Origin: a virus
Strand: one strand, 5' to 3'
Length of the DNA stretch: 52,629 bases
Virus record (IMG/VR): IMGVR_UViG_3300009494_000004
Coordinates: 1-52,629 of that record
Under the pieces are notes generated by a model. That model searched no databases. It saw only the letters and a list, made by a program, of their open reading frames with translations, and was not told the origin of the DNA. A program made the position numbers and the translations under genes. Positions 30,321 through 52,287 of this stretch are shown piece by piece (the first letter of the stretch is position 1; every line of letters starts with the position of its first letter).

Positions 30321-30584
30321 TTAAAAGTTAAGCAACCTTGGTTGTTCGTCACGCTCCCAGGCGTCCACAAGGTGCTTCGTGACCGCTTTGCGCAACTGCG
30401 GACCGTTTAACCGGGTCAGCTTTTTGGCGGTCGCGCTTATATTAAGCTTCTGCGTCCAGTCCGCGTAGTTAATAATGCTTTGCCATACTGAGCCGGGGTA
30501 GTTGTCTGCCATTTGTCTAATCGAGGGCGCGTTCACTTTTTCTCCTTGCGTGCTGTCTAATACTATAACCCAGTTTTTGGTCAA
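30321..30584 (-). CDS. Hypothetical protein, first gene of the late operon
   Basis: 87-aa ORF with a TTG start preceded by AAGGAA at 5 nt. Confidence 0.5.
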   Translation of the reverse strand: MTKNWVIVLDSTQGEKVNAPSIRQMADNYPGSVWQSIINYADWTQKLNISATAKKLTRLNGPQLRKAVTKHLVDAWERDEQPRLLNF

Positions 30585-30606
30585 AGGTTTCCTTTTTTAT
30601 TCACTG

Positions 30607-30629
30607 AATTACTATAAGCAGTAGTAGTT
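30607..30629. promoter_or_regulatory. Operator-like imperfect palindrome AATTACTA-N7-TAGTAGTT
   Basis: aattactataagcagtagtagtt, 23-45 bp upstream of the first late gene. Confidence 0.35.
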
Positions 30630-30656
30630 TGCCGCCTGACATCATTTTGTTTTTGA

Positions 30657-30679
30657 AATTACTACCCGTTGTAGTAATT
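30657..30679. promoter_or_regulatory. Operator-like perfect palindrome AATTACTAC-N5-GTAGTAATT
   Basis: aattactac ccgtt gtagtaatt, with perfect 9-bp arms. Confidence 0.4.
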
Positions 30680-30770
30680 AGCGTTACTGCTCATTTGTGC
30701 AATATAGGTCAAAATGCGTCATAGCCTATCAGCGCAAAGACGATTTCACTCATAGGTATATAGACCTACC

Positions 30771-30999
30771 AGTAGTACCCCTATTTCTTGGAGTTCTTGT
30801 AACTCTTGCAATGGGTTACGGAAGTTGAAATTTCAGTCAAATTGACGAAAAACCGAGTCCTTGTAACTCTTGTAACGACTTACGCGGATTTGAAATATAT
30901 TAAAATAGCTAACTCGTTGCAGGAGTTGCAAGAACTAAGGTTTTCGTTATTACCGTCAGTACGGACCAGTAGCTAACTCGTTGCGGGAGTTGCAAGGAC
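30771..30999 (+). repeat. Element A: 229-bp internally palindromic element with four 23-bp boxes (two forward, two reverse) around an AT-rich centre. Inverted homologue of 51983..52212.
   Basis: Boxes GTYCTTGYAACTCYYGYAAYGRS at 30793..30815 and 30857..30879 (forward), and at 30913..30935 and 30977..30999 (reverse). Box spacing is 64/56/64 bp and the centre is atttgaaatatattaaaata. Flanks also align with the reverse complement of element B. Confidence 0.8.
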
Positions 31000-31089
31000 A
31001 CGAGAACTGAGGGTACTATGCCGGTACTAAGGGGTGCACCGACGTGGGGCACTGCGCCGAAAACGGTGTATATGCAAACTTTTTCACAC

Positions 31090-31638
31090 TCAGCGCCTTT
31101 GTTCCATTTCGTTTATGTCGCGGCGCACCCAGTCGCGAATTTTCCATATTTTCGCCCTGACCGTCGACGCCCCACGCCCAAGGCCGAGTATTTCGGCAAT
31201 CTCTTTGCAGGGTATTTCGTCCGCTCGGAGGGCCATAACTTCGATGGCACGGCCTATCGGGCATCGCATTAGCGACCGTATAATGTCTTCGGCTTTCTCT
31301 TTCGTTAACCTGGCGTTTTCGGTATGCGTCCAGACATTGGTCGCGCTTTGAATTTCAGCGTTCTTTATCTCGGCTATCGTCGGCGAACCGCCCCTCGCCC
31401 GGCGCTGCTGGTGATGACGCCGCGACATAAGCAAGCACGCACCTCTTAACAGGTCAGCAGCGCGGGCCGGGTCGTTCGGCTTACCTATAACGTATGTTAC
31501 GGCGTTTTGCAGAGCGTCTTCGCCGTTCTCGCCCCGCACGCCGAGCTTCCACAGGTAGCCGAGCAGGGCGGGTCGCCTCTTCGCGTACGCCCGACCGACG
31601 GCGTCTGCCCACGTATCGCTATCGCATAATAACGTCAT
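31090..31638 (-). CDS. ECF-like sigma-70 family sigma factor
   Basis: Region-2-like LLGYLWKLGVRGENGEDALQNAVTYVI and region-4 HTH RAIEVMALRADEIPCKEIAEILGLGRGASTVRAKIWKIRDWV. 182 aa, the last gene of the early operon, ATGA-coupled. Confidence 0.65.
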   Translation of the reverse strand: MTLLCDSDTWADAVGRAYAKRRPALLGYLWKLGVRGENGEDALQNAVTYVIGKPNDPARAADLLRGACLLMSRRHHQQRRARGGSPTIAEIKNAEIQSATNVWTHTENARLTKEKAEDIIRSLMRCPIGRAIEVMALRADEIPCKEIAEILGLGRGASTVRAKIWKIRDWVRRDINEMEQRR

Positions 31639-32267
31639 TGCCCTCTTTTCCTTTCGTTTCTCTTTTCCGTCGCTCCGTCCTTGGCAAACTTTTGTTTATG
31701 CGCTTCAACCGCAAACACCTCGTTAGCGTCGTCGACTATATCAAGCGACCTGCCCGTAATGGCTGCCCTCGCGTCCCTTTCCGTCCAATATACGGATTCA
31801 ACCGCGCGCCAGCGGCCTTTGCAGCCGGATTTAAGCCACACTTGCGGTACCGGCATCGCGCCGTTATACAACGGGCGAAAATTGAACTTGATGTTTCTAA
31901 CGGTTCCGGCACGGATTTCGTTGCGCTCAATCATGAACGCCGTTTTATCCATTAGTTCGGCAAGTGCATTCTTTACTTCGCGGCTCGCCCGTACCACGCG
32001 TTTGTGCGGAGCGTCGTCGGGTACATCCGACGTAGATTTCATTGATTCAATTGTCTTTCGAACGCCGATGAAAGACAACTGATCCACCTTCGAATAAAGT
32101 CTTTTAACTTCCCGAATCTGTATCCTTAACGCGGCGGTCAAATACTTTATCGCTTTAGCGTCCTCTTTGCGTTTGAGCAGCAAGTACGCCAAAGCAGCGC
32201 CAAACGTGAAGATGGCGGCGGCATACAGAATGTCGACAACTATAGGTAAAATGTTTATTGGTTCCAT
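31635..32267 (-). CDS. Hypothetical single-pass membrane protein
   Basis: N-terminal transmembrane helix ILPIVVDILYAAAIFTFGAALAYLLL. 210 aa. Confidence 0.5.
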   Translation of the reverse strand: MEPINILPIVVDILYAAAIFTFGAALAYLLLKRKEDAKAIKYLTAALRIQIREVKRLYSKVDQLSFIGVRKTIESMKSTSDVPDDAPHKRVVRASREVKNALAELMDKTAFMIERNEIRAGTVRNIKFNFRPLYNGAMPVPQVWLKSGCKGRWRAVESVYWTERDARAAITGRSLDIVDDANEVFAVEAHKQKFAKDGATEKRNERKRGQ

Positions 32268-32443: not shown

Positions 32444-33222
32444 CAGATGCTATCCTTGTCTTCGTTGTCTTCGTTGTTTTCGTCATACAAATACGGATCA
32501 ACATGCGTTTCGTCAATTGACGCCAGTCTGTCCCGTATTGCCGTCTGCACGGCTTCAAGCAGATTGTTTAGCTCCGCGAGCGACAGCGCAGACAGGTTAA
32601 GGTTATGCAGGCCGCCAAGTTCCTCTCGCCAAACGAGAAGCATCTCGCCAACCGTCTCGGCGGTTATTTCCACGGCTTTTGGATTCGCGATAAGTACCCG
32701 ACCACCGGACGCGGACAGAGCGGCGCGGTCGGCATCAGCGGATACCTCTTTACGGACCTGTTCCATCAGCATACGAATCTGCGCGACATCGTCATGGATC
32801 GTCTGTACGGTAATGTACCCCTTGCTGCTTTCATGTACCGTATCTTCGCCGCCGCTCTTTTCGATACGTTCCATCACCGTGTCTATTAAATCCGATAACG
32901 CTTGCGCGCGGGCCTTCATTCCAGCCCAATGAACATCCTCAAGTGTGGCCGCCCAAATATCATGTGCTTCGACAAGCTCAGCCTTTGGTATGGCGGAGCA
33001 CCGTTTGAGAAACGTATTGCAGCCGTGCGCCTCTGGATCGAGACCGGAAAACCCGTTTGTTGTCCCGAATGTCGGATCGGTTAGCTCCCTGTAAAGTTCC
33101 GTCGGTTTAGCCCAAGTCGCCAGCGCGTTGACGATGTAATGTCGCACTTTTGCAGGCCAACGCGGCGTCTGTATCCGTGCGTTCTTTTTTGGTCGTCCGC
33201 GTTTCCGTTTTTTGTCAATCAT
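32443..33222 (-). CDS. AT-hook / DUF2280-like DNA-binding protein (possible small terminase; low confidence)
   Basis: KRKRGRPKK AT-hook, then VRHYIVNALATWAKPTELYRELTDPTFG, which resembles the N-terminus of DUF2280-type putative small terminases. Acidic C-terminus. Confidence 0.35.
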   Translation of the reverse strand: MIDKKRKRGRPKKNARIQTPRWPAKVRHYIVNALATWAKPTELYRELTDPTFGTTNGFSGLDPEAHGCNTFLKRCSAIPKAELVEAHDIWAATLEDVHWAGMKARAQALSDLIDTVMERIEKSGGEDTVHESSKGYITVQTIHDDVAQIRMLMEQVRKEVSADADRAALSASGGRVLIANPKAVEITAETVGEMLLVWREELGGLHNLNLSALSLAELNNLLEAVQTAIRDRLASIDETHVDPYLYDENNEDNEDKDSI

Positions 33223-35257
33223 CTGCTTCCGTTTCTTCTGTAAACTGTTTCGGGTCTACACTTAACGGCGCACGCCATACTGTTTTCGTACCGAATGCAC
33301 CCTCTGACTTTCCTATAGTTATACCGAGATTTTCCTGTGCAATCAGCCGTATCCGACGCCAAACAGCACTTTGCGCTTTGCCTCCGTAGACGTTCTTAAT
33401 TCTTGTATTCATGTCGACGGACGCGATCTCGTCTATGCCGTCAAACTGCGAAAGCAGCCAGTCTTCCGTCTTTTTATCGTGTCTATTTTTACCGTTATCG
33501 TCATCGCTGTCCTTTAAGTCAATCTCCCGATAGCCGTCCGTCTCGTTCACATATTGCAGAATTTTATCATTCGACGGCCCTACAAACCTACCAAGGAACG
33601 AAAGTGCCCTTGTGTTTGGGCTACGCTTACCGCCGCCGGACGGACGAAGGTGCGCTATCACGTCAACAGCGGCCTCGATACCGACCGAACCCGCCGACGC
33701 GCCGGACTTGTTCTCGTGATGTATCCACACGACGGCAGCGTCCGCGGCAAGCGCCGCGCTACGCAGTCGCGCGGTCTCCGCCTGCCAAAGCGCGGTTTCG
33801 TGCGACTCAGGAACTTCATGGCTTTCCGAAAAAAGCGGAAAGAGCGTATGGATCGAGTCAAGCACAACTATATCCGGCGCGATTTCCACTATGATGTCAT
33901 ACAGCCCTTTCCACGTTTCCGGCATGATGCCCGGAATCTCGCCGTGCAAAATGCGAACGCGCGCAGCGTCGATATCCGATACGTTTGCCTCTTTGAACCT
34001 GCGGACAACGTCGCCAAGCGGTTCGTCGTTCGACACCCAAAGAACCGTTCCTCCGTTATCAAGAACAGCAAGCGACTCGTACGTGCACAGCGTGGACTTG
34101 CCGGACCTTTTTGCAGACCCGACAAGCAGCGTTATCCGCTGCCTCCAGCTCACCCACCTGCCGACTGTTTTTGGCCGCTCGGTGAGTTGCGGATCGGTCA
34201 TCAGCTCGGCGAGGCTCGGCGGCGGTTTGCGGCCTTTCTTCTCGCCATCATCATCGTCGACGTCGTCCGTATCTCGGAGACCGTTTTTTTTGATATCTAC
34301 GCGCGCTTTTTCCCTCGCCTTCTTTACGGCGTCGTCACTTTCGCCGAAGTCGTAACCCTCGCCCGCGTATGCGCTCCGCACAATCCGTTCCAAGTCATCA
34401 AGTGTAAGTGGTGGATTATTTAATCCATTCCATTCAGACAGAAGCCGTCCGGTCTCGCCGATGTCAATACCGCACTTGCGGCACTCGCTCGCCAGCACAA
34501 TCGCACGGTTGTCCCGACCACCATCTCTGCTTTCTTTGACGCCCTTCGCGAGCAACAAGTTCAACGACTTGCGGTACAGCTCTCTACGGTACTTCGACAG
34601 ACGTGAATCGAGTTCCGGCCAGGTACCTTCATTTTCGTCAACAGGGGGGGAAGTCTCCTCTGCGAACGTTTCGTCCGGCAGCACGAAATAGCCGCCGTTC
34701 GTGCCAACCCGAAAATACTCATCAAAATTTTCATGCGCCCAAGACTTCGTTCTCTTATTATCGTCAAGATAGTATTTCGCGCACGGAAACGCTGGTTGGG
34801 ATATTGTTAGCATCTTTGAATCGCTATCGGGAAACCGCCCAATTAGCCATTTACGCACGATGGCGAATTTTGCTGGGTCGTCAATAGACGGAGACAACGG
34901 AAGCAGCACACGAAACCTCGGTTTATCCGCCGTATGTCGTGCGGTTGGTGCTATAACGTAAATATATTCGGCGAACTCTTTTTCCAGTCCGTCAACAGTT
35001 TTTCCCTCGTCGTAATCAAGTGCAATTGCAGCCATAGACTTTGCATTCGCACGGCTGCGAACACCATCCTTGAATTCCCATACTGTATAGCCACGAGTTT
35101 TCAATACAAGCGCAAGGGACTTGCATCCTTCATCTGTTGATAGATTAAATGTCGTTTCGACATCCATCATACCGCCTGGTTTTCGACGATAGCCAGCTTC
35201 TTCTTTTGACTGAACAGATTCACGGGCGACAAATAATGTTAATTTCATTGATTTCAT
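33215..35257 (-). CDS. Primase-polymerase / RecA-fold (AAA_25, RepA/DnaB-like) replicative helicase fusion
   Basis: Walker A GSAKRSGKST, Walker B-like IVVLDSIH and VWIHHENK. The central RDNRAIVLASECRKCG resembles a PriCT domain. Confidence 0.7.
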   Translation of the reverse strand: MKSMKLTLFVARESVQSKEEAGYRRKPGGMMDVETTFNLSTDEGCKSLALVLKTRGYTVWEFKDGVRSRANAKSMAAIALDYDEGKTVDGLEKEFAEYIYVIAPTARHTADKPRFRVLLPLSPSIDDPAKFAIVRKWLIGRFPDSDSKMLTISQPAFPCAKYYLDDNKRTKSWAHENFDEYFRVGTNGGYFVLPDETFAEETSPPVDENEGTWPELDSRLSKYRRELYRKSLNLLLAKGVKESRDGGRDNRAIVLASECRKCGIDIGETGRLLSEWNGLNNPPLTLDDLERIVRSAYAGEGYDFGESDDAVKKAREKARVDIKKNGLRDTDDVDDDDGEKKGRKPPPSLAELMTDPQLTERPKTVGRWVSWRQRITLLVGSAKRSGKSTLCTYESLAVLDNGGTVLWVSNDEPLGDVVRRFKEANVSDIDAARVRILHGEIPGIMPETWKGLYDIIVEIAPDIVVLDSIHTLFPLFSESHEVPESHETALWQAETARLRSAALAADAAVVWIHHENKSGASAGSVGIEAAVDVIAHLRPSGGGKRSPNTRALSFLGRFVGPSNDKILQYVNETDGYREIDLKDSDDDNGKNRHDKKTEDWLLSQFDGIDEIASVDMNTRIKNVYGGKAQSAVWRRIRLIAQENLGITIGKSEGAFGTKTVWRAPLSVDPKQFTEETEADD

Positions 35258-35510: not shown

Positions 35511-35809
35511 TGTCGTCTCCGTTTAATACGCCGCAACCCCGGCCACAATTTTACAAACGTGTAGTAAAGCAAAAGCGCCAGCCAAACCGCGTTTGCCACA
35601 ACAACGGCTACGCCGCCAATAAATGACAACCACTGTCCGAGATGCGGATAGTAAAACAGGTTCCAGCCGCCCCACGCGGTAAAGAACGCTACCGCAATCC
35701 AACTGACACCCTTAACCTGCCTGTCGATAAGCAATCGACGCACGTTCAGCATAACAAACAACGCGCCGCACGCCTCAAGTATTCCATTGATCGTATCAGG
35801 CCACGTCAT
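35507..35809 (-). CDS. 3-TM membrane protein with a SemiSWEET/PQ-loop-like layout (tentative)
   Basis: 100 aa with three hydrophobic helices. The pattern LN-VRRLL..R.VKGVS, W..NLFYY and VANAV parallels the PQ-..VLKTRS...IS, LW..YG and SNAV of bacterial SemiSWEETs as I recall them. Confidence 0.35.
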   Translation of the reverse strand: MTWPDTINGILEACGALFVMLNVRRLLIDRQVKGVSWIAVAFFTAWGGWNLFYYPHLGQWLSFIGGVAVVVANAVWLALLLYYTFVKLWPGLRRIKRRRH

Positions 35810-36669
35810 TTCGTTTGACTCTCCATCCGTATTCCGAATCCGAGTAGAAGCGCGACAAGTGTATCCTTAATAGTATTGTCTGGTTCGGAAAGGAACCGCG
35901 TCCCAGCGACAGCTTGTACATAGTTCCTTATTACCGATTCAGTTTCATCAATGAGATCCGCCGCCGCGCGCCTGACGAGATGCTCGTCCGCGGCGGCGAT
36001 ACATAAATCCCTCACGTCAGCACGCGGAATGGTAGCCTTTCGCAGTTTTTGCGCGGATTTAACAATCTCCGGATCAAGCGTCAATTCGACAAATCTGTCA
36101 TAAAATAGGTCGGCGGCTTCGTTATAGTCAAGTTTACGGAACGTAAATTCGTCTATAGCACCGTCATACGACATCGCCATGTTGAACTTCAGGTCATCTG
36201 ATGGATTTGCAGACATCAAATGCTTATATTCCGTGACATTCATTATCTGATCTGCCTTTGTAACATAAGGACTTCTTTTAATTGGCAGACCGAATGCCTC
36301 GGCGACAACCGGCTCCCATATCCGTTCCAGCGCTTTATAGGAATTGAGCAACGATTTTAACGGACGCGATACGTCGCCAAGGTACGCTTCCGCCGCGTCG
36401 TGCATAAGCGCTTCAAACTGCAACATCCTCTTCTGCTTGTCTGTCATAGCGGCCAACTCCTCCGGGGGGACCAGAGAAAGCACCAGGTTCGCGCACTCGA
36501 CGGAATGCTCGGCAACACTGTAAAAACCGTTCGTATAGCCGGTAAACCGGCACTGTGCACCCAGCGACTGCGCAATATCCCTTATGTCGATGATACCAAC
36601 ATGCGGCCTTAAAAGGTTAACGGATATCCCACTTCCCGTCGCAATAATCGGTTCGGTTGTTTGTTTCAT
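35806..36669 (-). CDS. HD-domain phosphohydrolase, YfbR-type 5'-deoxynucleotidase / dNTPase-like
   Basis: FYSVAEHS...LMHDAAEAYLGDVSRPLK reproduces the H...HD...D metal-ligand pattern of YfbR-like enzymes. The ATG at 36669 has AAGGAGAG upstream. Confidence 0.65.
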   Translation of the reverse strand: MKQTTEPIIATGSGISVNLLRPHVGIIDIRDIAQSLGAQCRFTGYTNGFYSVAEHSVECANLVLSLVPPEELAAMTDKQKRMLQFEALMHDAAEAYLGDVSRPLKSLLNSYKALERIWEPVVAEAFGLPIKRSPYVTKADQIMNVTEYKHLMSANPSDDLKFNMAMSYDGAIDEFTFRKLDYNEAADLFYDRFVELTLDPEIVKSAQKLRKATIPRADVRDLCIAAADEHLVRRAAADLIDETESVIRNYVQAVAGTRFLSEPDNTIKDTLVALLLGFGIRMESQTK

Positions 36670-36686
36670 GTTTCTCTCCTTAATAT

Positions 36687-37220
36687 TTACGGTATCCAAC
36701 CATGTTTTTTGTCGTATTTTTCCGCACCGCCACGTTTAAACGGAGCGTCCGCAGGGCGGTTATCAAACTCCGGTTTGATGTCTACGAAGTCGAGGAGGAA
36801 AAGCAGGCAGCAAATAGCGTGCGCGAGGTGGTGCAGTCCCGATTCCGGATCGTATTCTTCGCCACCGTACCAGGCCCAAATATGACGTAACGCCGCGCCA
36901 ACGTATCGAGACCATTTAAGGCCACACCGGTACGAATTTGCCTCATACTTTTTTGCACCGTACGTGAGGACAGCGACGACCTGCCGTAGTGGGCCGGGCA
37001 TTAGTAACTCGAACATCAGCTTTCCGTCGTCGTACTTCGGTGCCTCAAATTTAGATGTTGCCGTTTCCCCCGCCACTGTTGACGACATAACCCGTTTTAG
37101 TGGCGGTTGCCGTAAACTATTTTTAGGTTTGTCAAACAATGCTATAAGTTGCGCAACCGGACCGAGTTTGATTTTTCCAGGTTTGATTTTTTCAATTTTC
37201 TTTTTCTTCAACGGATTCAA
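36687..37220 (-). CDS. MazG-like all-alpha NTP pyrophosphohydrolase (DUF5664 / dATP-dGTP diphosphohydrolase-type domain)
   Basis: KYDDGKLMFELL...VLTYGAKKYE.NSY......SRYVGAALRHIWAWYGGEEYDPESGLHHLAHAICCLLFLLDF matches that phage domain. The start is uncertain (TTG at 37220 or 37211). Confidence 0.6.
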   Translation of the reverse strand: MNPLKKKKIEKIKPGKIKLGPVAQLIALFDKPKNSLRQPPLKRVMSSTVAGETATSKFEAPKYDDGKLMFELLMPGPLRQVVAVLTYGAKKYEANSYRCGLKWSRYVGAALRHIWAWYGGEEYDPESGLHHLAHAICCLLFLLDFVDIKPEFDNRPADAPFKRGGAEKYDKKHGWIP

Positions 37221-39264
37221 CTCCTTTTTCTACGGACGTGCAGCTGCTCCACGAGTCGCCCGCCTCGATATCGACCGCAAAGGGGACAAACCCTTCGACA
37301 TCAATTTCCATAGCGTCGCGTATCATCGGCACAAGTCTGTCGCGATACTTTTTCGGTGTATGAAATAACAGTTCGTCGTGGACCGTTAATAGCATTTCGA
37401 CCGGGAACTTCGCAGGGACAATGATTCTATCATAACATCGTTTTATTGCGATCTTCATAATATCGGCGGCGGTGCCCTGCACTTCCTGGCTGATGGCGCG
37501 GCGTTCCCATTTCGCGCGCTCACCGGGAACGTCCGACCAGATTCCAGTCATCCCGCCGTCGTTTTCGTTGCCAGTCAACGGACGAATGCGACCAAAGTAA
37601 GTCTTCGCCCATCCACGCTGAAACGCAAGGCGCTTCCTACGACCAAGCCACGCAGTAAGTGCGGGCACAGTTTCGAACCATTTATCGATAAATTTCTGCG
37701 CTTTGCTTTCACTAATGTTGTATAGAAGAGCAAACGCATACGCGGTTTGTCCAAAAAGTGCTCCAAAATTTTGGCCTTTCGCTTTTTTATACTCTTCTTC
37801 AGTATAGTCCGCGCCGAACATTTTGATAGCGGTCGCAACGTGCGGCGATTCACCTTTCGCAAATGCATCAATCCATACTTTTTCTTTCGCAAAACTCGCC
37901 GGTATTCTAAGTTCAATCTGCGAATAATCTGCATCGACAAATGTCCAATCCTCATCCGATATAAACGTTGCACGGATATTAACTGGTACGTAGTCACCAG
38001 CGCACTTTGGAATGTTTTGTAAATTCGGTCCCGAACATGAAAATCTACCTGTTGCCGGACCGACTGACCAAAACGACGCGCGTAGTTTTCCGTCGTCATC
38101 CATTGCCTTTGGTATCTTCGATGTGAAACTGGATCGCAGCGTGCCAAGGCTTGATCCGTTCAATAACATTTCAACTACTGAATGCTTATTTTTCAATGAA
38201 TTGATAAACTTCTTTCCAGTAGCGCCGTAACCTGACGCCGTGTACGCTACCGGCTCCAATAACCGCCCGTCGACATCAATAAGTGCTGTTTTCTTATCGT
38301 GCGAAAGCGTTTTTTTGTTCCAGTTACCGAAAAGCAAAACGGATTTCTGCATCCAGCTTTTGAGGTTAATTTCCGTCGGTTTGCCGTACCGCTCCTCGGA
38401 CGCTATCTCATTCACCCGTCCGTTGATGACTTCGTACGCCTGCCCAAGCACCTTGTCCTGATCGGCAAGCAAGTCCAAGTTTATCCGTACGCCCGCCTGC
38501 TCCATATGGATGACTGGACGCACGACCTCATGCTCAAGGTTCCATGTTCCGCGCTGTTTTTCTTTCGTCTCAGCCAGTTCGGGAAGAAGCCATAATCTCC
38601 AGGTGAAATCAGCGTCCTGACAGCCGTAAATACGTTGCATCTTATTGTTAAGTTTGAGGAAGTCGCCGGGCATAAACTTTGACTTCGGGACACCGATTAT
38701 CTTGCTCATCGACAGCGTCGACCCGACGCCGGTGAGGTGCTTTTCGGCGAAACCTTTTAACCCTCCCGTCATTTTGTTATTCGGCCACGTAAGGTGGACG
38801 CCGATGAACACATCCTGGAAATCGTGGACTTCAACTCCGTGGTTCTCCAAAATGGGGATATCGTATTTCGCGTTTGCCATGACGAGCGTACTTTTCTTTG
38901 CCTTTACGGCGAGCGCCCTTAAACATGCCTTTGAGGGCATTGGAACCCAATAGGCCTGTGCGGGTTCGCAGCATACCGAAAAGCCGTACAGCTCCGTCTT
39001 GCCGGGCCGTATATCGAGACCGCTTGTTTCCGTATCTACCGCAAACTCGTTACCAAATCCGTTAAGTACCTTCCGTAATTCGGTAGCCGTTTTAATTTCA
39101 ACGTACCGGCAACCTTTATCCATTGCTTCGGCGTATTGAACCTGAAGCCCGGCTTCTTTCTCCAGCTTCAGTTGCGTCTTGGTTGGCGGCTTGATCTTTT
39201 TTTCTTTTTTCCTTTTAATTTCAGGCACTGTACGCCTCCAATGCGGCTTCCGCAGCCTCGACAT
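37192..39264 (-). CDS. Family-A DNA polymerase with a 3'-5' exonuclease domain
   Basis: Exo I FAVDTETSGL, motif A DADYSQIELRI, motif B KGQNFGALFG and motif C TVHDELLFH. Confidence 0.85.
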   Translation of the reverse strand: MSRLRKPHWRRTVPEIKRKKEKKIKPPTKTQLKLEKEAGLQVQYAEAMDKGCRYVEIKTATELRKVLNGFGNEFAVDTETSGLDIRPGKTELYGFSVCCEPAQAYWVPMPSKACLRALAVKAKKSTLVMANAKYDIPILENHGVEVHDFQDVFIGVHLTWPNNKMTGGLKGFAEKHLTGVGSTLSMSKIIGVPKSKFMPGDFLKLNNKMQRIYGCQDADFTWRLWLLPELAETKEKQRGTWNLEHEVVRPVIHMEQAGVRINLDLLADQDKVLGQAYEVINGRVNEIASEERYGKPTEINLKSWMQKSVLLFGNWNKKTLSHDKKTALIDVDGRLLEPVAYTASGYGATGKKFINSLKNKHSVVEMLLNGSSLGTLRSSFTSKIPKAMDDDGKLRASFWSVGPATGRFSCSGPNLQNIPKCAGDYVPVNIRATFISDEDWTFVDADYSQIELRIPASFAKEKVWIDAFAKGESPHVATAIKMFGADYTEEEYKKAKGQNFGALFGQTAYAFALLYNISESKAQKFIDKWFETVPALTAWLGRRKRLAFQRGWAKTYFGRIRPLTGNENDGGMTGIWSDVPGERAKWERRAISQEVQGTAADIMKIAIKRCYDRIIVPAKFPVEMLLTVHDELLFHTPKKYRDRLVPMIRDAMEIDVEGFVPFAVDIEAGDSWSSCTSVEKGVESVEEKEN

Positions 39265-39988
39265 CGCGCTCGTATAGATGCAGATTAAGCGCGATATTCG
39301 TGAACCGTCCGCAGGGTCGGCTAAGCTCGTCGGCCATCGCCATCTGGAGTCCGTGCATCGTGAACACGTCGTTGCGAAGACCTGTATTTACATCCTGCGA
39401 GCGGAATACAACTGTCGCACATAAACCGCCATTCCTTATCGTAAACTGAAGGCAGATACAGCACGGAAAATCTTTCGTCGGAACCGCCTTGTGCTTGACC
39501 TGATTTACGTTCAACACGACCTGCCTGCTGTCCGAGTCTTTTCGTAGCTTGTCAACCGCCCATATCCATTGGTTTATATCTGTAACGTAGTAGCCCGTGT
39601 CGCCCTCGTGCTTCGACGGCACCGTCATATCGAATCGCTGACTGAATAAATACTGTCCGTACGCACTATTGACACGTATACCGTCGTCGGAAAATTGCTC
39701 CCAAAGCTTTGTAAAACTTTTTCTCGTCACCGGATGTACAAGGTCGGCAATTCTGTCAGATCCGCTCAAGTACCAAGCAAGTTCGGCCTCAGCGTACGGC
39801 ACCCTCGTGTGAAACGGCTTTAACGTTGACACAAAATGCTTGTCCTGATAACCGTTTATATAATCAAGCGTAAGAATGTAATTGTTTACCTCACGCACGG
39901 CCAAACTACGCGGCGCGGACTTCTGCCCAGCCAATGTCGCCCTAATGGCATCATAATACTCTTTATTGAAATCTGTAAATAGCGACAT
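39221..39988 (-). CDS. Thymidylate-synthase-fold enzyme with the dCMP-hydroxymethylase-type active-site signature (deoxycytidylate C5-modifying enzyme)
   Basis: It aligns with E. coli ThyA across ELAWYLSG, NSAYGQ, DSDSRQVV, FPCCICLQF and FRSQDVNTGLRND. The residue 31 positions after the nucleophilic Cys is Asp (RND, as in T4 gp42 D179), not the Asn of dUMP-specific enzymes. The ATG at 39988 has AGGAGAG upstream. Confidence 0.65.
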   Translation of the reverse strand: MSLFTDFNKEYYDAIRATLAGQKSAPRSLAVREVNNYILTLDYINGYQDKHFVSTLKPFHTRVPYAEAELAWYLSGSDRIADLVHPVTRKSFTKLWEQFSDDGIRVNSAYGQYLFSQRFDMTVPSKHEGDTGYYVTDINQWIWAVDKLRKDSDSRQVVLNVNQVKHKAVPTKDFPCCICLQFTIRNGGLCATVVFRSQDVNTGLRNDVFTMHGLQMAMADELSRPCGRFTNIALNLHLYERDVEAAEAALEAYSA

Positions 39989-40454
39989 CGACTCTCTCCT
40001 GTATCTTTTCAGTTTCCCAGTTAAGCAAACCCCCGTTCCATTTCTGTTCGAATCTGCAATCCTCAAACTTATTTAACGGTACGGAACTACGCCCGGCGTT
40101 TTTTGCGACTTTCGCAGCGGCCCGCCACCTGTCAACGGGAACAGCATACGCGCACTTGTTGCGCGGACCTTTGTAATGCACGATAATGAGAAATCCCACA
40201 CCGCCCGCGCGCTCAATATCTTCCAGTTCGTCAAGCTGACTTTCACGAACTCCACGTAACGGCTGAGAAATACCGTGTTTTACAATTTTGAATTCAAACC
40301 CGACCGCTATTCCGTCCCAACAGGCAATAACGTCAACAGCGCGTGTCCCCGTATCAAGTCCATACCGGGGATCTGCGATCTTATGACACCAAAGCTCCGA
40401 CTTGACACGTCGCCAGCTTTTCGTTATTTGGTTTGTTATCTCGGTTTCTCTCAC
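39963..40454 (-). CDS. PD-(D/E)xK nuclease, Holliday-junction-resolvase-like
   Basis: VDVIACWDG..VGFEFK gives a D...E.K catalytic motif. GTG start with GGAGA upstream. Confidence 0.5.
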   Translation of the reverse strand: MRETEITNQITKSWRRVKSELWCHKIADPRYGLDTGTRAVDVIACWDGIAVGFEFKIVKHGISQPLRGVRESQLDELEDIERAGGVGFLIIVHYKGPRNKCAYAVPVDRWRAAAKVAKNAGRSSVPLNKFEDCRFEQKWNGGLLNWETEKIQERVDVAIYRFQ

Positions 40455-40466
40455 GGTTTTCTCCGG

Positions 40467-40814
40467 CTACAAATTAAACGATTCCGACGCCCTGATAAGT
40501 GCTATTATATTCGACACGTAACATAGACTTATTCCGTATTCGCCTGACTTTGACGGCTGGCAGATGCCAAGTTCTATCGCAATAGCGCGCTGCAACGTTT
40601 GTAATCGTGCGACCTCAACGACAAGTTCATTTTTGTTTTTTGCGTGAAGTGAAATTTCAGTCGATACCCTAAATTCGCAGAATATGGGCTGGGGTGGCGT
40701 TTTCGGCCCTTTGTGGCTTTTCGGTCCGTCGATTCTCTTTGCAACTTTTTTTGCGGACTTGCGACTTTCGCCGGGATCATACCAGTCTTGTTCGTTTTTT
40801 GATTCTGGTTTCAA
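40467..40814 (-). CDS. Hypothetical protein
   Basis: TTG start in a TTGA overlap, with GAGGG upstream. The N-terminal DWYDP motif is shared with the product of 43262..43921. Confidence 0.45.
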   Translation of the reverse strand: MKPESKNEQDWYDPGESRKSAKKVAKRIDGPKSHKGPKTPPQPIFCEFRVSTEISLHAKNKNELVVEVARLQTLQRAIAIELGICQPSKSGEYGISLCYVSNIIALIRASESFNL

Positions 40815-41107
40815 ATCTTAACCCTCATTACTTTGACTTTTTTCTGGACGTACGACAGCGCCTCTACGGTATTCCGTATTGTGTAGAAACCCGTACGCCA
40901 CGCGATTACGATAGGCTTACCGTACCGGGTGCGGTCCGACGCTGCCCATGCGTCAAAATGGTCTTTGAATTTTTTCGTCGTTTCGTCTTCAGTGGGGGCA
41001 TTGACCATAACCGCATTCAACTGCGCAACCATCATCCTCTTAAACGAGGTAAGGTCCATAAAATCCCCAAGCGAAAATCTGTATTTTGTTTTTTGTTTCT
41101 TACTCAT
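40811..41107 (-). CDS. Hypothetical protein
   Basis: The ATG at 41107 overlaps the upstream stop (ATGAGTAA). The track start is 41137. Confidence 0.45.
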   Translation of the reverse strand: MSKKQKTKYRFSLGDFMDLTSFKRMMVAQLNAVMVNAPTEDETTKKFKDHFDAWAASDRTRYGKPIVIAWRTGFYTIRNTVEALSYVQKKVKVMRVKI

Positions 41108-42098
41108 TGTTTTGTGTCCACATTCCGTAGCCTGCATGGTTCGGACTGATTATCCTCGGCAACGTGCCGGATTCCTGTATGGCCCGCATAACCTGCCAAT
41201 ACTCTATGACGCGCTGCTCCAGCGTATGGTAGCGTAGCACATTCTGCTGTCCGCACGCCGCCATCTCCTCGCGAATATCATCATGCTCTAAGTAGAAATC
41301 TATTTTACGCACCAGGTCGTCAAACGTGTCATCGTGCGTAACACAATGCGTGCCCTTCTCCCACATATAGTCGAAATTCTGCACCTTGTGGTTGATAAAC
41401 GCCACGCCGGAACCCATCGCGTTATACGTACGATTACTGACGACAAACGGACCGGGATTCAGAAATAGGCTGCGCTGTATATTGAACGCCACTTTGCTTT
41501 GAGCATAGGCCTCGGCCATATTCCATTCACGAATCTCGCCGGGTCGCCCTATTTTGTCGAGGACGAATTTGCATTTGTACCGACGGCTAAGTTCATTAAG
41601 CCATTTTCTTCTAATCTTATCGGTCGATCCTATGAAGCACAAGTCGTAGATTTCCTTCGACAAATCAAGCCGCGTCGGCAGCGCGCCGTCTTTCATGCAG
41701 GAACGGTGATCGAAGTATTGAGGCATCCACAGCACGGTCGGCGCGAGGTCGCAGTACCGGCGAGCCGTCTCAAGTATGGAGAACACGAGCACGTCGGCCC
41801 GGTTCGCAAGCTGACGACGCCACATCCTGTCGCGCGTCCGCTCCGTCATGTCGGGATACCAGAACAGAAGCTTCGCACCGCTTTTTCGTATTTGGCGGTA
41901 GTAGCGCCGGAAGTCCGGACGTAGCGCAAAGCAGAACACCCAATCGGGCTTATACGACTCAAGCACGGGTAGCATCTCCTCTGGATGCGCGCGCGACCCG
42001 GTCAACATAACGTCGAATCCCTGACGTTTCGCTTCCTTGTACAAATACGGACCGGCGAACCGCTTCTGAAATCCGCACGCCCAAACGAGAACCTTCAT
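41100..42098 (-). CDS. Glycosyltransferase, CgeB/GT1-like (GT-B fold)
   Basis: [10 protein letters not shown]..., LCFIGS..., VAFNIQR....[16 protein letters not shown] resemble the DUF3880/Glyco_trans_1_2 (CgeB) family. ATGA-coupled start at 42098. Confidence 0.55.
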
Positions 42099-42343
42099 AC
42101 GGATACTCCATGACATTTTTTGTACTTAAGACCGGAATCGCACGGACACGAATCGTTCCTGCCAATCTTATAATAGGGACGCCGATAGGTTCCACGTACG
42201 GATGAATCCCAGAACGTCATACACTTACGCCCGTATTTGTCCCTCTTGTCCGGTTTCCGCTTTTTGGGTTGCGCGGTTACGCTTTCACGCTTACGCAGAA
42301 AACTAAATAGCCACGCAATTATTTTCGCAAAAATCTTCATCAT
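42095..42343 (-). CDS. Small protein with an N-terminal hydrophobic helix and a C-terminal SEC-C zinc motif
   Basis: [17 protein letters not shown] is a SEC-C motif. ATGATGA coupling to the upstream gene. Confidence 0.55.
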
Positions 42344-43179
42344 AGACTGTCCTTTAGCATGCGTTTCGCCTCGTTGACTATGACCGACGAATCCGGCAAC
42401 CACATTTTCTTTTGTCTCCAGTGCGCATCGCCTGGACTTTGCATTGTCTTGACGCGCGTATTAAACGGATTCCAATGACTTTGAACCCGTAGACTGTGGT
42501 CGCGGCACGTTTGCCAACACAACTGTGGAAGCCCGCACAGTGTCGCCAGGTGTGCTGGTCCCGACTGCGGACTAATGATGAGTTTCGACGACGCCATTAA
42601 ATCCGTTAATGCGGTAAGGTTAATATCTCGGCAATCCGTGCCCCCTACGTGCAAAGACGACTCAGATTTTCCAATACATACGACGCTGTATCCGGCGCGC
42701 ATAAGCGATTCTGAAACTATCTTTGCATGCTTTTTCGGCCAATTCCTAAATCCGGTGCTGCATTTGTCGGTATCGCGAACATGGAGCAAAACATCCGGTA
42801 CAAGGCAACCGTCGACCTTTTTGCCCAACCGAATAAGCGACTGCCGCGTAGACCAATACTGTGAATCCCACCACCGCTGCGGATACGCATCCGGTTTTAT
42901 CCATTCCGCGTTTGGCGCAAAATCCTCAATGTAAAAGCGAAAATTCGTGATTTTCTGTCTATCGACAGATCGGTCGTAACACATATCAGTTTGGTTGTCG
43001 CCTTCGCCGAAATGTAATATGTCGTCGGCAAAGTCCGTATATAGTGCATCGTGTCCAGCCCGACACGCGACGACGACTCGGTCGTACTTCGGCGCAATTT
43101 TCCTGAGAAACCCCTGCCAACAAAACAGTTCCCAACCGAGCTCGCCTATGAATGGTCCGGCAAAAAGTGTCTTCATCAT
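42340..43179 (-). CDS. Glycosyltransferase, GT9 (heptosyltransferase)-like GT-B fold
   Basis: N-terminal [12 protein letters not shown] and C-terminal [19 protein letters not shown] resemble GT9 enzymes. AAGGAAA Shine-Dalgarno. Confidence 0.5.
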
Positions 43180-43194
43180 TTTCCTTATTTAGAG

Positions 43195-43219
43195 CAGGCC
43201 GGGTTTTATGCCCGGCCTG
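43195..43219 (-). other. 9-bp GC-rich stem-loop between genes (weak terminator candidate; no U-tract)
   Basis: caggccggg-ttttatg-cccggcctg. Confidence 0.3.
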
Positions 43220-43261
43220 ATTCAGCGGCCTACCGATCCGTGTAACAGCTACGCCGATTCG

Positions 43262-43921
43262 TCAGTCACTTTTCTTGCCGGACGTGGCATCCTTCAGCTC
43301 TTTTGTAGTCATCACCTTGCCGACTTTGTCCTTAAATGACTCGCGGAACTTGTAGCTCTCCCAGTCGCTTTCGACTTTTTCCGAAAGATCGTCGTCCAAA
43401 GCGAAGGCTTCCGGCGCGACAGAAATGTCGTCGAAGAACGTGAATTCGCCCTTTTTAACGCCAGTCAACAGCAGGTCGTGCTCGAAGATTTTCTCTCCCC
43501 ACTGCTTGAACTGCTTAAACAGCCGCTCGTATATGGGTTTCGACATCGCCCAAAGCACGAATTTGTATTCGATGTCCTCAATTTCCATTTTCTTGCCAAG
43601 CGTGCCGTCGCTCTTTACATCATACACAGCAACCGGCACAATATAGCGTGGATCGGGCGGCTTGCCGGTAAGCTCCTGGTCAAATCCCGGTTTCACTTCG
43701 CGATAACGTCCGTCGACAATTTCGTACTCCGTCAGAGTTTGCACTGAACCAACTTTGTTCTGGTCGATATAGGAGCAGTATTCGCGATGTGGCGGACACA
43801 TAAGCATAACGCGCGTCACCTTGCCCGGCTCGGCCTTCAGCCAATCGAGGCTATTCTGTCCCGCCTCTGCCGGATCGTACCAATCGGCGTTGACCTTTTT
43901 CTTCTTGCTTTTTTTCGACAT
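43262..43921 (-). CDS. Hypothetical protein (possible ssDNA-binding/annealing role from position only)
   Basis: 219-aa ORF with a Lys-rich N-terminus, a DWYDP motif and an AGGA Shine-Dalgarno. Confidence 0.45.
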   Translation of the reverse strand: MSKKSKKKKVNADWYDPAEAGQNSLDWLKAEPGKVTRVMLMCPPHREYCSYIDQNKVGSVQTLTEYEIVDGRYREVKPGFDQELTGKPPDPRYIVPVAVYDVKSDGTLGKKMEIEDIEYKFVLWAMSKPIYERLFKQFKQWGEKIFEHDLLLTGVKKGEFTFFDDISVAPEAFALDDDLSEKVESDWESYKFRESFKDKVGKVMTTKELKDATSGKKSD

Positions 43922-43976
43922 TTCACCATCCTTTTTTCCGGTTATAGTTTTTTCTTCAGTTCATGTAAATTCGCGA

Positions 43977-44039
43977 AAACGCCGCGACAACGGGGCTTCT
44001 GTGTCTTTCCAGTGTCCGCCCCGGAATAGCGCGGCGTTT
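43977..44039 (-). other. Nested inverted repeat (10-bp outer stem aaacgccgcg/cgcggcgttt, 6-bp inner stem cggggc/gccccg); candidate terminator or attenuator
   Basis: Read directly. On the minus-strand RNA the outer stem is followed by UUUUCGCGAAUUU. Confidence 0.35.
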
Positions 44040-44047
44040 GCAAACGG

Positions 44048-44795: not shown

Positions 44796-44813
44796 GGCTT
44801 TTTCCTTACCCCC

Positions 44814-45704: not shown

Positions 45705-45711
45705 TTTTACC

Positions 45712-46485: not shown

Positions 46486-46516
46486 TACAATCTCCTTGTT
46501 AAGGGTCACTTATATA

Positions 46517-46536
46517 GTAAGCGAATCCCGTGCCAA
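46517..46536 (-). promoter_or_regulatory. P3: sigma-54-type -24/-12 promoter-like motif TTGGCAC-N5-TCGCTTAC (minus strand)
   Basis: The reverse complement reads ttggcacgggattcgcttactatata. It shares 16 identical nt (attcgcttactatata) with P1 at 1125..1150. It lies in the only sizeable intergenic gap inside the early operon. Confidence 0.5.
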
Positions 46537-46654
46537 GATCCAGAAAAAACCGTAACACGTTGAAACACAATACAATAGCGTAATCGACGAAAGGTCAACC
46601 GCAGAAAAAATGCAAAAAAGTGTGGGTTTTTAGCCATATTATGTAGATCGCTAC

Positions 46655-51890: not shown

Positions 51891-51910
51891 GTAAGCTAAT
51901 TCCGTGCCAA
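51891..51910 (-). promoter_or_regulatory. P2: sigma-54-type -24/-12 promoter-like motif TTGGCACG-N4-TAGCTTAC (minus strand)
   Basis: The reverse complement reads ttggcacggaattagcttac. The GC of the -12 element lies 13 nt before the ATG at 51882. The motif sits 73 bp downstream of element B. Confidence 0.45.
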
Positions 51911-51982
51911 CCCGATAAAAAATTTGCCTATAATGTATCGCGCCCGCGCGCGTAAAGCACCCATAGCACCCCCCACCCCCCA

Positions 51983-52212
51983 GTCCTTGTAACTCCCGCA
52001 ACGACTTAGCTACTCGTCCGTACTGGGGGCAGTAACAAAAACTCAAGTCCTTGTAACTCCCGCAACGACTTACGCGGTTTAATATATCTCAAATTCCCGT
52101 AACTTATTGCAGGAGTTACAAGGACTTGGTTTTTCCCTTTTTTACGGCTACTTCCGTACAGCCGTAACCCGTTGCGGGAGTTGCAAGAACTCCAAGAAAT
52201 AGGGGTACTACT
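51983..52212 (-). repeat. Element B: inverted homologue of element A (30771..30999), with four 23-bp boxes around an AT-rich centre
   Basis: Boxes at 51983..52005 and 52047..52069 (gtccttgtaactcccgcaacgac, twice), and at 52103..52125 and 52168..52190 (reverse orientation). The centre tttaatatatctcaaat is the reverse complement of the element A centre apart from one base. The flank aggggtactact is the reverse complement of agtagtacccct at 30771. Confidence 0.8.
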
Positions 52213-52287
52213 ATCGGGCTATATAAGCCCTTAAGAAACGCTATCGTCTATTCATCAGTGGAATCCCGCGCCCGACACCAAAAGATG

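Follow-up and report, generated by a model that had tools for sequence, protein, structure and literature searches.

Late transcription in several phages depends on promoters read by a phage sigma factor, as with the ECF-like sigma of phiEco32/7-11-type phages, gp28 and gp33/34 of SPO1, and gp55 of T4. In phi29, phased sites for p4 and p6 lie between divergent early and late promoters, and the nucleoprotein complex formed there represses early and activates late transcription. Symmetric site arrangements are also known from replication origins and packaging sites. In SV40 and in HSV oriS, inverted initiator sites flank an AT-rich centre, and HSV has multiple origin copies; in phage P4, the primase-helicase binds two iteron clusters, ori and crr, that lie apart. 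The pac sites of P1 (with hexamer sets) and of SPP1 have symmetric repeat sets around a centre. Regarding SPP1 replication, gp38 binds both oriL and oriR, which are about 13 kb from each other, and one of the two is situated in a late-gene intergenic region (PMC6316719). It has been proposed that oriR blocks the replication fork, that a Holliday-junction resolvase and an exonuclease process this barrier, and that the stalled fork triggers the switch to concatemer synthesis (PMC6316719).

We compared these systems with a pair of inverted elements, A and B, that bracket the early module of an uncultured phage. The stretch analysed, referred to as the window, covers positions 1 to 52,629 of IMG/VR record IMGVR_UViG_3300009494_000004, and its features are collected in Table 1. 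As in the late regions of phages with their own sigma factor, the sigma gene belongs to the early/middle operon and the late genes have no early-class promoters. A possible resemblance to ECF promoters lies in an AAC-containing −35-like element and a CG(T/C)A −10-like motif, 16 nt apart. Unlike in those late regions, the putative promoter is placed inside a symmetric array of four boxes with 64/35/64 spacing, and a second, inverted copy of the array stands at the opposite end of the early module; we know of no described sigma-dependent late promoter with such an array. On the strength of motifs and gene order, we read each element as a duplicated, polar cis-regulatory module of about 310–330 bp that would control late transcription, and we give this reading a little less than an even chance. 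All promoter assignments are motif-based.

Table 1. Positions of the elements, their borders and the neighbouring features in the window.
Feature	Position	Strand	Remark
Element A box I	30972..30999	-	
Element A box II	30908..30935	-	
Element A centre	30885..30907	none	83% A+T
Element A box III	30857..30884	+	
Element A box IV	30793..30820	+	
Element B box I	51983..52010	+	
Element B box II	52047..52074	+	
Element B centre	52075..52097	none	70% A+T
Element B box III	52098..52125	-	
Element B box IV	52163..52190	-	
ECF-type sigma factor gene (182 aa)	31090..31638	-	last gene of early/middle operon, directly upstream of A
Upstream border motif GTGAAAAAGTTTGCATATAC	31068..31087	-	aligned in A, B, L006, L007 and L008; B counterpart 51915-51935 (+)
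Upstream flank TTAGTACC-N4-TAGTACCC (GTACC-type motifs)	31011..31030	-	
ECF-like promoter motif GCAAC-N16-CGTAC in A (putative)	30959..30984	-	overlaps box I, directed toward late operon
Downstream border of A, AATAGGGGTAC-N11-CTATATACC	30755..30785	-	faces late operon
Late leader	30537..30754	-	five-genome alignment
Conserved ATTACTAC-N5-GTAGTAAT in late leader	30658-30678		
GTTATAGTATTAG in late leader	30557-30569		immediately 5' of ribosome-binding site
First late gene (71 aa)	30321..30536	-	conserved across clade
Element B upstream border ATAAAAAATTTGCCTATAATG and AAAGCACCCATAGCACCCC	51915..51972	+	
ECF-like promoter motif GCAAC-N16-CGTAC in B (putative)	51998-52023	+	at box I
Element B downstream border AATAGGGGTAC-N10-CTATATAAGCC	52198..52229	+	faces 501-bp repeats and small + strand operon
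Early promoter-like site P3, TTGGCAC-N5-TAGCTTAC	51891..51910	-	about 75 bp from B box I, divergent
Ninth, single core box CAACGTGTTACG	46551..46562	-	starts exactly 28 nt upstream of GG of P2
Promoter-like site P2	46511-46536		promoter of replication genes

The original prediction held that A aligns with the reverse complement of B over its full length, and the alignment bears this out. Global alignment of A (30771–30999) with reverse-complemented B (51983–52212) gives 80% identity, compared with 58% in direct orientation and a mean of 47% (maximum 52%) when B is shuffled. A repeat search of the window recovered the pair as inverted arms of 174 nt (78%) and 51 nt (92%), much longer than those of every other inverted pair of distant sites within the window. 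The copies are thus real, but the unit is longer than the 230 bp first proposed: homology extends over about 310–330 bp, from about 30755 to 31087 in A and from about 51915 to 52229 in B. The further claim that each element is itself a large palindrome fails over the whole length, where identity to its own reverse complement is only 54–58% (about 47% at random) and each element has a definite polarity. Since A aligns with the reverse complement of B, the CTATATA end of each copy is presented to the genes that are transcribed away from that copy. The polarity of A faces the late operon; B lies upstream of the early operon and is directed away from it. A position upstream of each long operon had been correctly proposed, with the direction of B missed. 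The window overlaps itself at its ends (1–342 equals 52288–52629), so B is located where the early operon meets a small rightward operon. Element A overlaps small open reading frames of 56, 47 and 32 aa and element B one of 77 aa; these were rejected as coding, since the frames of one copy do not match those of the other and the spacers carry indels among relatives.

Each element is composed of four 28-bp boxes, arranged as two and two in inverted orientation around a 23-bp AT-rich centre, with the box consensus GTcCTTGyAAsTCynsCAACrrsTTAss. Inside every box, TTGYAAC and sCAAC are phased 9 bp apart. This phasing had been described earlier for a box of 23 bp; the box is 28 bp because conservation runs on through rrsTTAss. 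Similarly, an inner pair with arms of about 30 nt around a 20-nt AT-rich centre had been described; the layout holds, with measured boxes of 28 nt and a centre of 23 nt, and in B the complementary arms are up to 37 nt long. The half-site motif TTGYAACTCYYGYAA has exactly eight zero-mismatch occurrences in the window, four in A and four in B with none elsewhere, and only about one match would be expected in the window even with two mismatches permitted. A and B are the sole sites of these boxes save one promoter-proximal site. Comparative alignment with related phages, which had been suggested as a check, shows the boxes conserved and the spacing of 64/35/64(65) bp unchanged in six elements from four related phages. 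In the aligned elements the I–II spacer and the centre are conserved and the III–IV spacer is not. The centre of A joins a palindromic AATATATT core to an asymmetric conserved TTCAAATCC (− strand). Across elements the centre has the consensus ATATAT(C/T)TCAAAT(C/T)C, 16–17 nt separate its TATAT core from GYAAC in either inner box, and the centre is also kept in the distant relative L022.

The identity of the direct pair (I–II) is as high as that of the inverted pair (II–III), and in L007 the II–III pairing is lost (identity 0.64), yet every box retains the consensus. On these two grounds, a hairpin or cruciform as the primary selected feature was rejected. The boxes behave in sequence as separate protein-binding sites and not as hairpin partners, and each element would provide four spaced sites for a sequence-specific protein. 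The same observations weigh against a terminator or insulator, in which the inner pair, flanked by GAAAACC and GGTTTTTCG, would form a long bidirectional hairpin, or the bound array a roadblock, stopping early read-through into the late genes at A and, on circular or concatemeric DNA, late read-through into the early genes at B. We consider this improbable. The elements do stand exactly at both ends of the early module, also in L017, where B occurs without a divergent operon. The RNA of the inner pair folds strongly from either strand (−34 to −56 kcal/mol, z from −5 to −11), with an A-run pairing with a T-run at its base, and these flanking runs are kept in four of the five aligned elements. 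However, the fifth, L008, is without the T-run, one consensus for all four boxes is needless for a hairpin, and II–III complementarity is no better conserved than I–II similarity. A 28-bp stem with a 23-nt loop is also unlike known intrinsic terminators, the single box at P2 is left unexplained, and the hairpin could be a by-product of an array whose main function is to bind protein. In the vicinity of A and B, neither a simple sigma-70 promoter scan nor a terminator scan exceeded shuffled expectation; in the whole window, Rfam covariance models at gathering thresholds gave no match and a tRNA gene scan found none. IHF was rejected as the only box-binder: the core fits CAANNNNTTR, but conservation exceeds the IHF consensus (TTACGG and the 16-nt left half), and the left half differs between phage lineages.

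Regarding the surroundings of A, the neighbouring gene points to a phage sigma factor. A profile of eight sequences (the 182-aa protein and seven homologues) matches CnrH, SigH, sigma-E and SigL with E values of 8e-8 to 1e-5 over nearly its full length, including regions 2 and 4, as expected of an ECF-type (group 4) factor. The gene itself has weak NCBIfam and PHROG sigma matches, and its homologues have Pfam Sigma70_r2, r4_2 and ECF matches; one homologue is labelled 'sigma24 family' by JGI. An AlphaFold2 model built from three sequences had a mean pLDDT of 50 and was unusable. On the other side of A, the first late gene is followed by a Cpn10-like gene and by the GpA-type terminase, portal, capsid and tail genes of a 28-kb late operon of packaging, structural and lysis genes. 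Within the borders of A, CCCTTAGTACCC of the upstream flank is kept in L006, L010 and L022, and AATAGGGGTA(C/T) of the downstream border also occurs in B of L016, in L017 and in the distant L027. The late-leader motif GTTATAGTATTAG has a single occurrence in the window and was discarded as a repeated late promoter motif.

The putative ECF promoter motif GCAAC-N16-CG(T/C)A is found at box I of A, B, L006, L007, L008 and B of L016, with its −10-like part in the I–II spacer; it is unrecognisable in L010 and L022. The promoter-like features of an element are co-directional: the box I motif, the TATAT core and AATAGGGGTAC-N10/11-CTATATA at the exit. A wider form, GYAAC-N15-17-CG(T/C)A(C/A), was rejected as a genome-wide promoter class, since its five matches in the window compare with 2.4 expected. 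An activator or late-sigma control region was among the roles first proposed, and it is the best supported of them, by the adjacent ECF sigma gene, the synteny, the box I motif and the box at P2. Under late-transcription control, the early module would be transcribed by host RNA polymerase from P3 and P2, with the sigma gene last. The new sigma would then redirect polymerase to one or more promoters embedded in A and turn the late operon on; likewise, at B it would drive rightward transcription, with possible interference with P3. The four phased boxes may be filled cooperatively, their occupancy setting the timing or strength of the switch, and the candidate occupant is the sigma (region 4 of the holoenzyme) or another phage protein, for example the early HTH-phosphoesterase encoded at 49001–50305. 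Several observations count against this reading, including the empty sigma-70 scan at both elements, the unrecognisable motif in L010 and L022 and the arrangement in L017 described below. The CG(T/C)A −10-like motif is present at box I only, leaving the other three boxes without explanation. The boxes of each pair, I/II and III/IV, are directed at the centre from both sides, an unusual layout for promoters. The lone site upstream of P2 would equally fit autoregulation by a replication initiator.

The gene order around A is maintained among relatives. The ECF sigma gene is directly upstream of A in the window and in L006, L008, L010 and L022, and in L007 one methyltransferase gene lies between the two. 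The polarity is the same in L006 for A and in L016 for B, and B with this polarity is kept in the one relative whose contig covers both sites. The distant, PurZ-carrying L024 and L027 encode a homologous sigma (hhalign 88–93%), followed by inverted 9-bp-phased repeat arrays and then by the conserved first late gene and Cpn10; the repeats, GATCACAA and GTACCCACG, are unrelated in sequence to the boxes of the window. In the distant L026 and L027, 9-bp units of the GTACC type make up the entire array. L010 has a GC-rich palindromic centre, CCGTACGG, in place of the AT-rich one. That the array and the neighbouring sigma both evolve fast is in keeping with a factor and its target. In a fuller form of the control reading, which we think distinctly unlikely as a whole, the phage ECF-type sigma, as holoenzyme or through region 4, would read the arrays as a multiplied AAC-type −35 element, and the inverted copies would cooperate or loop as a genome-scale switch that turns late transcription on at both boundaries and closes or insulates the early module, with the array co-evolving rapidly with the sigma. 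If the elements are the late switch of this clade, they would be a kind of promoter not previously described for an ECF sigma encoded by a phage, and the fast turnover of the array under a kept geometry and gene order would offer a natural system for the co-evolution of a sigma, or another factor, with its sites. They would also be a practical marker of the early/late boundary in uncultured phages of the group, including the PurZ-carrying L024 and L025.

The relatives also bear on two forms of mobility. A MITE-like mobile element was ruled out, both copies being syntenic in relatives. The original prediction also saw in the elements possible recombination substrates that invert the 21-kb early segment, and the inverted copies of about 300 bp, 80% identical, do bracket that segment. 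However, no integrase, invertase, resolvase or transposase was found by Pfam, PHROGs or NCBIfam in the approximately 68 open reading frames. The order of early-module end, array and late operon is seen in L006, L007, L008, L010 and L024, L022 has sigma and then the array, L016 has the small operon, B and the early operon, and the alternative isomer is never seen. Within a genome, the similarity of A to B (0.65–0.72) does not exceed that between A elements from different genomes; ongoing exchange is thus not indicated, and the copies have diverged independently. Inversion is in our judgement hardly credible. Database searches gave the following: blastn of 8 kb around A had no match in 50,697 phage records; a box-pair pattern scan of IMG/VR yielded five hits, all false positives since they are unrelated 9-bp coding tandem repeats (Cys/Asn-rich); the primase-helicase had no match in IMG/VR as a single sequence or in GTDB genomes as a single sequence or profile; and an exonuclease-profile scan of IMG/VR gave 38 loci, none with box clusters of the window type and none on the L027 or L028 contigs.

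B can also be compared with sigma-54 and phi29 systems. The early promoter class TTGGCAC-N5-T(C/T)GCT matches the −24/−12 consensus, and B lies about 75–290 bp upstream of P3, as sigma-54 enhancers do; the distance from P3 to box I is the same in L016. CAAC-N3-TTA, the core box, conforms to the IHF core CAANNNNTTR, and the copy at P2 occupies the usual IHF position of sigma-54 promoters. In contrast to such enhancers, A has no −24/−12 promoter nearby: a PWM scan found only three early-class promoters in the window, with none near A or for the late operon. No sigma-54 activator domain or enhancer-binding ATPase was present in the scanned phage proteins, and in L026 the −24/−12-like motif forms face-to-face inverted pairs, which suit an operator better than a promoter. 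Similarly, the back-to-back arrangement of B and P3 recalls the p4/p6 region of phi29; phi29, however, has one region, another site structure and no phage sigma, and no p4 or p6 homologue was detected in the window. L017 has a B-like cluster that retains the border motif with no gene on the side it faces, so promoting a divergent operon cannot be the whole role of B.

The ends of the window are close to B, which lies 75 bp from a 501-bp repeat and from the window-end overlap, and A heads the packaging and structural operon. These positions, together with symmetric repeat sets resembling P1 pac and SPP1 pac, would suit a pac- or cos-like packaging site, with a central cleavage region between sites for the terminase small subunit, on the model of P1 pac or SPP1 pacL-pacC-pacR. 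We regard this as very unlikely: from two opposed sites 21 kb apart, packaging would run in opposite directions and take in sub-genomic DNA, the terminase belongs to the GpA (lambda-type) family and its small subunit was not identified, and the link to the sigma gene and the promoters is unexplained.

A pair of replication origins, also among the roles first proposed, is the main alternative to late-transcription control, and we judge it less likely than that reading. A phage initiator, perhaps the primase-helicase or a P2-operon product, would bind the boxes as iteron-like sites on either side of an unwinding centre, and the two copies would form an origin pair, or an origin and a fork barrier like those of SPP1; the embedded promoters would give transcriptional activation or a primer. 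The claimed symmetry of sites around an AT-rich centre holds: they are two-fold symmetric around 23 bp of 70–83% A+T, in strict helical phase, and the four 28-bp boxes of an element share one consensus, as multiple initiator-type repeats would. Two similarly organised copies per genome recall oriL and oriR, and P4 sets the precedent of two separated iteron clusters bound by a primase-helicase. The phage encodes primase-helicase, PolA, exonuclease-like and endonuclease VII-like proteins, and the counterpart, by position, of a RecU-like gene annotated in relatives is also present. However, what is conserved in the centre is a particular asymmetric sequence and not AT-richness alone, and in L010 the centre is GC-rich. 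Neither element adjoins the primase-helicase gene at 33215–35257, from which A is 2.2 kb away, four genes downstream, and B 17 kb away; it is the sigma gene that is conserved as a neighbour. No inflection of the cumulative GC skew occurs at A or B, which is weak evidence given that the skew is dominated by co-oriented genes. An origin has no need of promoter-like features that share one polarity, and this polarity and promoter-like content, with the absence of the AT-rich centre in L010, set the elements apart from the origins of SV40, HSV and P4. SPP1 differs in having direct repeats, and an oriL within the initiator gene, where the elements here have inverted sets, a sequence-conserved centre and a sigma-gene neighbour; no gp38 homologue was identified in this phage. 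If the elements are an origin and a barrier, the idea put forward for oriL and oriR would extend to an unrelated phage group with a primase-helicase.

The ninth box bears on both late-transcription control and the origin alternative. The core motif has eight matches compared with 0.8 expected, seven in A and B and one at P2, and a single core box occupies the same −28 position in L016 and L020, three genomes in all. This placement suggests that the box-binder acts at promoters, and, P2 being the promoter of the replication operon, it would fit initiator autoregulation as well. In L016, the central triplet of the single box matches the B boxes of that genome.

Element A aligns with the reverse complement of element B at 80% identity, against 58% in direct orientation and at most 52% for shuffled sequence, and the inverted pair is detected as arms of 174 and 51 nt. 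Each element contains exactly four copies of the half-site motif TTGYAACTCYYGYAA, eight in all, and the rest of the window has none. As originally predicted, the inner boxes flank an AT-rich centre and the half-sites are phased by 9 bp; the centre spans 23 nt, with an A+T content of 83% in A and 70% in B. The four boxes per element were also recovered, but the conserved box is 28 bp rather than 23 bp, and the homology of A and B, itself upheld, covers a longer unit of about 310–330 bp. The description of each element as a large palindrome applies to the boxes and flanks and not to the whole (self-reverse-complement identity 54–58%); thus, the element has polarity.

The inner pair of boxes (II–III) folds strongly as RNA or DNA. 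Hairpin partnership is nevertheless unlikely to be the main function of the boxes, since direct pairs (I–II, III–IV) equal inverted pairs (II–III, I–IV) in identity, and in the related phage L007 the inner-pair complementarity is mostly gone (0.64) while every box still fits the consensus. The single consensus in all four boxes and their fixed helical phasing indicate, at the sequence level, cooperative binding by a sequence-specific protein. Tandem 9-bp repeats (TGCAACTCT and variants) in the unrelated IMG/VR phage contigs L001–L005 form short ORFs; they mimic the half-site, encode Cys/Asn/Ser-rich peptides and were rejected as false positives.

Coordinates of features in the window
Feature	Position	Strand	Remarks
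Element A, aligned core	30771–30999		
Element A, full unit	30755–31087		
Element B, aligned core	51983–52212		
Element B, full unit	51915–52229		
P1	1125–1150	+	early promoter-like class
P2	46511–46536	-	early promoter-like class
P3	51891–51910	-	early promoter-like class
Sigma gene	31090–31638		182 aa
210-aa protein gene	31635–32267	-	
Late-leader motif GTTATAGTATTAG	30557–30569	-	
Late-leader hairpin-like motif	30658–30678	-	
Phosphoesterase gene	49001–50305	-	434 aa
Vsr gene	50305–50718		
Homing-endonuclease gene	51319–51882	-	HNH/NUMOD4/AP2
Early/middle module	51882 to 31090	-	HNH endonuclease, Vsr, exonuclease-like phosphoesterase, C5 methyltransferase, glycosyltransferases, thymidylate-synthase-like protein, PolA, MazZ-like protein, HD protein, primase-helicase
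Modification/nucleotide gene set	35806–48993	-	
Late module	30536 to 2646	-	conserved 71-aa protein, Cpn10-like protein, GpA-type terminase, portal, protease-capsid, tail tube, tail fibres, holin, endolysin
Small operon	1154–2657	+	
Identical ends	1–342, 52288–52629		
501-bp tandem repeats	1–1000		
Non-coding end regions	1–1002, 52288–52629		
84-bp tandem repeat	16837–17042	-	within ORF 16527–18074

Metagenomic contigs of relatives were reached via homologues of the primase-helicase and exonuclease. The element persists in all four relatives with a 59–77% identical primase, at the same junction of early-module end and late operon. The sigma gene directly adjoins the array in three of these four; in L007 one methyltransferase gene intervenes. 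The sole contig covering both boundaries, Ga0466255_067590 (L006 and L016 are its parts), also holds a B copy, located in L016 between a small divergent operon and an early promoter; its polarity matches that of the window copy. In six elements the core boxes begin at x, x+64, x+99 and x+163/164, and the 24 boxes yield the consensus GTcCTTGyAAsTCynsCAACrrsTTAss, with ten invariant positions. Sequence conservation across elements covers the I–II spacer, the outer flanks and the centre [ATATAT(C/T)TCAAAT(C/T)C], whereas the III–IV spacer is conserved in length and not in sequence. A and B inside one genome (0.65–0.72 identity) are no closer than A elements between genomes (0.66–0.75), so the two copies are old and separately maintained. 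Inversion of the intervening segment, an original suggestion, is extremely improbable: we found no recombinase among about 68 ORFs scanned, a single isomer in all contigs and no sign of exchange between A and B. A packaging site is hardly more credible, given two opposed copies.

The ORF directly upstream of A encodes an ECF-type sigma factor; a profile built from this protein plus seven homologues matches CnrH, SigH, sigma-E and SigL over nearly full length (E = 8e-8 to 1e-5). In distant PurZ-carrying relatives, a homologous sigma (hhalign 88–93%) is followed by inverted 9-bp-phased arrays, the conserved first late gene and Cpn10. Their repeat units are unrelated: GATCACAA (L024), GTACCCACG (L027), TTCCATACC (L025) and GTCAGTACC (L026). 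In the related phage L010 the boxes differ in sequence and number 3+3, with spacings of 63, 41 on one side of a GC-rich centre and 42, 64 on the other; L022 has a further box variant and retains the central GATATCTCGAAT. The window and relatives as far as L027 share the exit motif AATAGGGGTA(C/T). Because distant relatives keep the order and exit motif with unrelated repeats, the layout of sigma, symmetric 9-bp-phased arrays, conserved exit motif and late operon is, judged from these alignments, ancient, with rapid turnover of the array sequence and likewise of sigma. The gene directly upstream of sigma encodes a 210-aa protein whose N-terminal segment is hydrophobic; visual inspection also shows a C-terminal motif, YWT.(R/K)DAR, common to the gene preceding sigma in the phage L020. 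The protein had no family match and is placed where an anti-sigma factor would be.

We tentatively favour A and B as a duplicated late-transcription control module. What is observed is where the two copies lie, the polarity they have in common, the sigma neighbour, the geometry of the sites, the deep synteny and a ninth box near a promoter. The motif GCAAC-N16-CG(T/C)A(C/A) lies at box I in six of six close elements, facing the late operon in A and pointing rightward in B; in the centre, the palindromic TATAT core is separated by 16–17 nt from the GYAAC of each inner box, and the exit sequence is GGGGTAC-N10/11-CTATATA. Either the box I motif or the centre would be a sigma-dependent promoter, the boxes would be read by sigma, its holoenzyme or an early protein, and B may link late firing to control of P3. 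Early genes have a distinct, strongly conserved promoter-like class, TT(T/C)GGCAC-N5-T(C/T)GCTTA(C)TATATA, and none of its three window copies precedes the late operon, which therefore needs its own promoter in the 31089–30537 gap. The core motif CAAYRNSTTASS is matched eight times where 0.8 matches would be expected; A and B account for seven, and the remaining one is near P2. Measured from the GG of P2, this single box lies exactly 28 nt upstream; the −28 position recurs in L016 and L020, and the L016 box has the central triplet of that genome's B boxes. The fixed position in three genomes argues that the predicted box-binder acts at the promoter too. A candidate early box-binding protein is the phosphoesterase, homologues of which carry an N-terminal Fis-type HTH.

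The N-terminal stretch of this 434-aa protein reads like a Fis-type HTH (PF02954 is annotated in several homologues), fused to a metallophosphoesterase-like 'DNA repair exonuclease' (phrog_704). Its gene lies near the early-operon start in all relatives, and the product is a candidate sequence-specific DNA-binding protein.

The control-module reading has weak points. Only one of the four boxes has a −10-like partner, and the boxes point inward, toward the centre; in L010 and L022 no ECF-like motif was seen, and the B-like cluster of L017 faces no gene. A boundary terminator or insulator would account for the positions, L017 included, but leaves the four-fold box identity unexplained, and we regard it as improbable. 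Replication is a less remote yet doubtful alternative: the copies would be two origins, or one an origin and the other a fork barrier, the latter scheme having been proposed for SPP1 oriL/oriR (PMC6316719). Consistent with it are the two-fold symmetry of the sites about an AT-rich centre, the presence of two similar copies per genome, and a site at the replication-operon promoter that may be autoregulatory; however, the centre is sequence-specific and asymmetric, that of L010 is GC-rich, the primase-helicase gene is distant, and the linkage is to the sigma gene. The elements resemble an origin in their repeats but not in their location, and the centre, AT-rich in the window yet GC-rich in L010, is an equivocal match to an unwinding element. 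As putative control modules they come closest to the late-promoter regions that phage sigma factors serve, combined with a phi29 p4-type multi-site switch. To our knowledge, no element of this architecture has been described.

Regarding the early promoter class, it fits the sigma-54 −24/−12 consensus nearly perfectly and also occurs in L012, L016, L017, L018, L020 and L026; no enhancer-binding ATPase was found in the phage. At least eight copies occur in L026, some of them as inverted pairs facing each other; the motif may therefore be an operator instead of a sigma-54 promoter. The late leader has GTTATAGTATTAG immediately 5' of the ribosome-binding site, as well as one or two hairpin-like ATTACTAC-N5-GTAGTAAT motifs. 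Both are conserved in close relatives, with GTTATAG-TAT kept in L010 too, and could represent a proximal promoter, processing site or attenuator.

At about 52.3 kb, the phage genome in the window is complete or nearly so, with nearly all genes on the minus strand; no close cultured relative was found. The window ends overlap at 100% identity. The 501-bp repeat region begins 75 bp from element B, and the 13-mer CCTCATACTTTTC occurs nine times in the end-repeat region (seven distinct after removing the end overlap); L016 has no repetition there. This region may represent an iteron-type origin, a packaging region, or a direct terminal repeat that the assembly collapsed or expanded. The modification set comprises a C5 methyltransferase, two glycosyltransferase-like genes, a thymidylate-synthase-like protein, a MazZ-like dGTP/dATP diphosphohydrolase and an HD phosphohydrolase, with Vsr just outside. 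PurZ (adenylosuccinate-synthetase-like), known from phages with 2-aminoadenine (Z) genomes, is extra in distant relatives (L024, 8663–9736; L025, 2605–3672); the window has no PurZ match, which suggests a different modification. The homing-endonuclease gene separates P3 from the first conserved early gene and has its ATG nearly at the predicted transcript start; it is probably a recent insertion, since L016 and L017 lack it. Finally, a perfect 84-bp (2 × 42-bp) tandem repeat of 2.5 copies lies within a 515-aa structural ORF.
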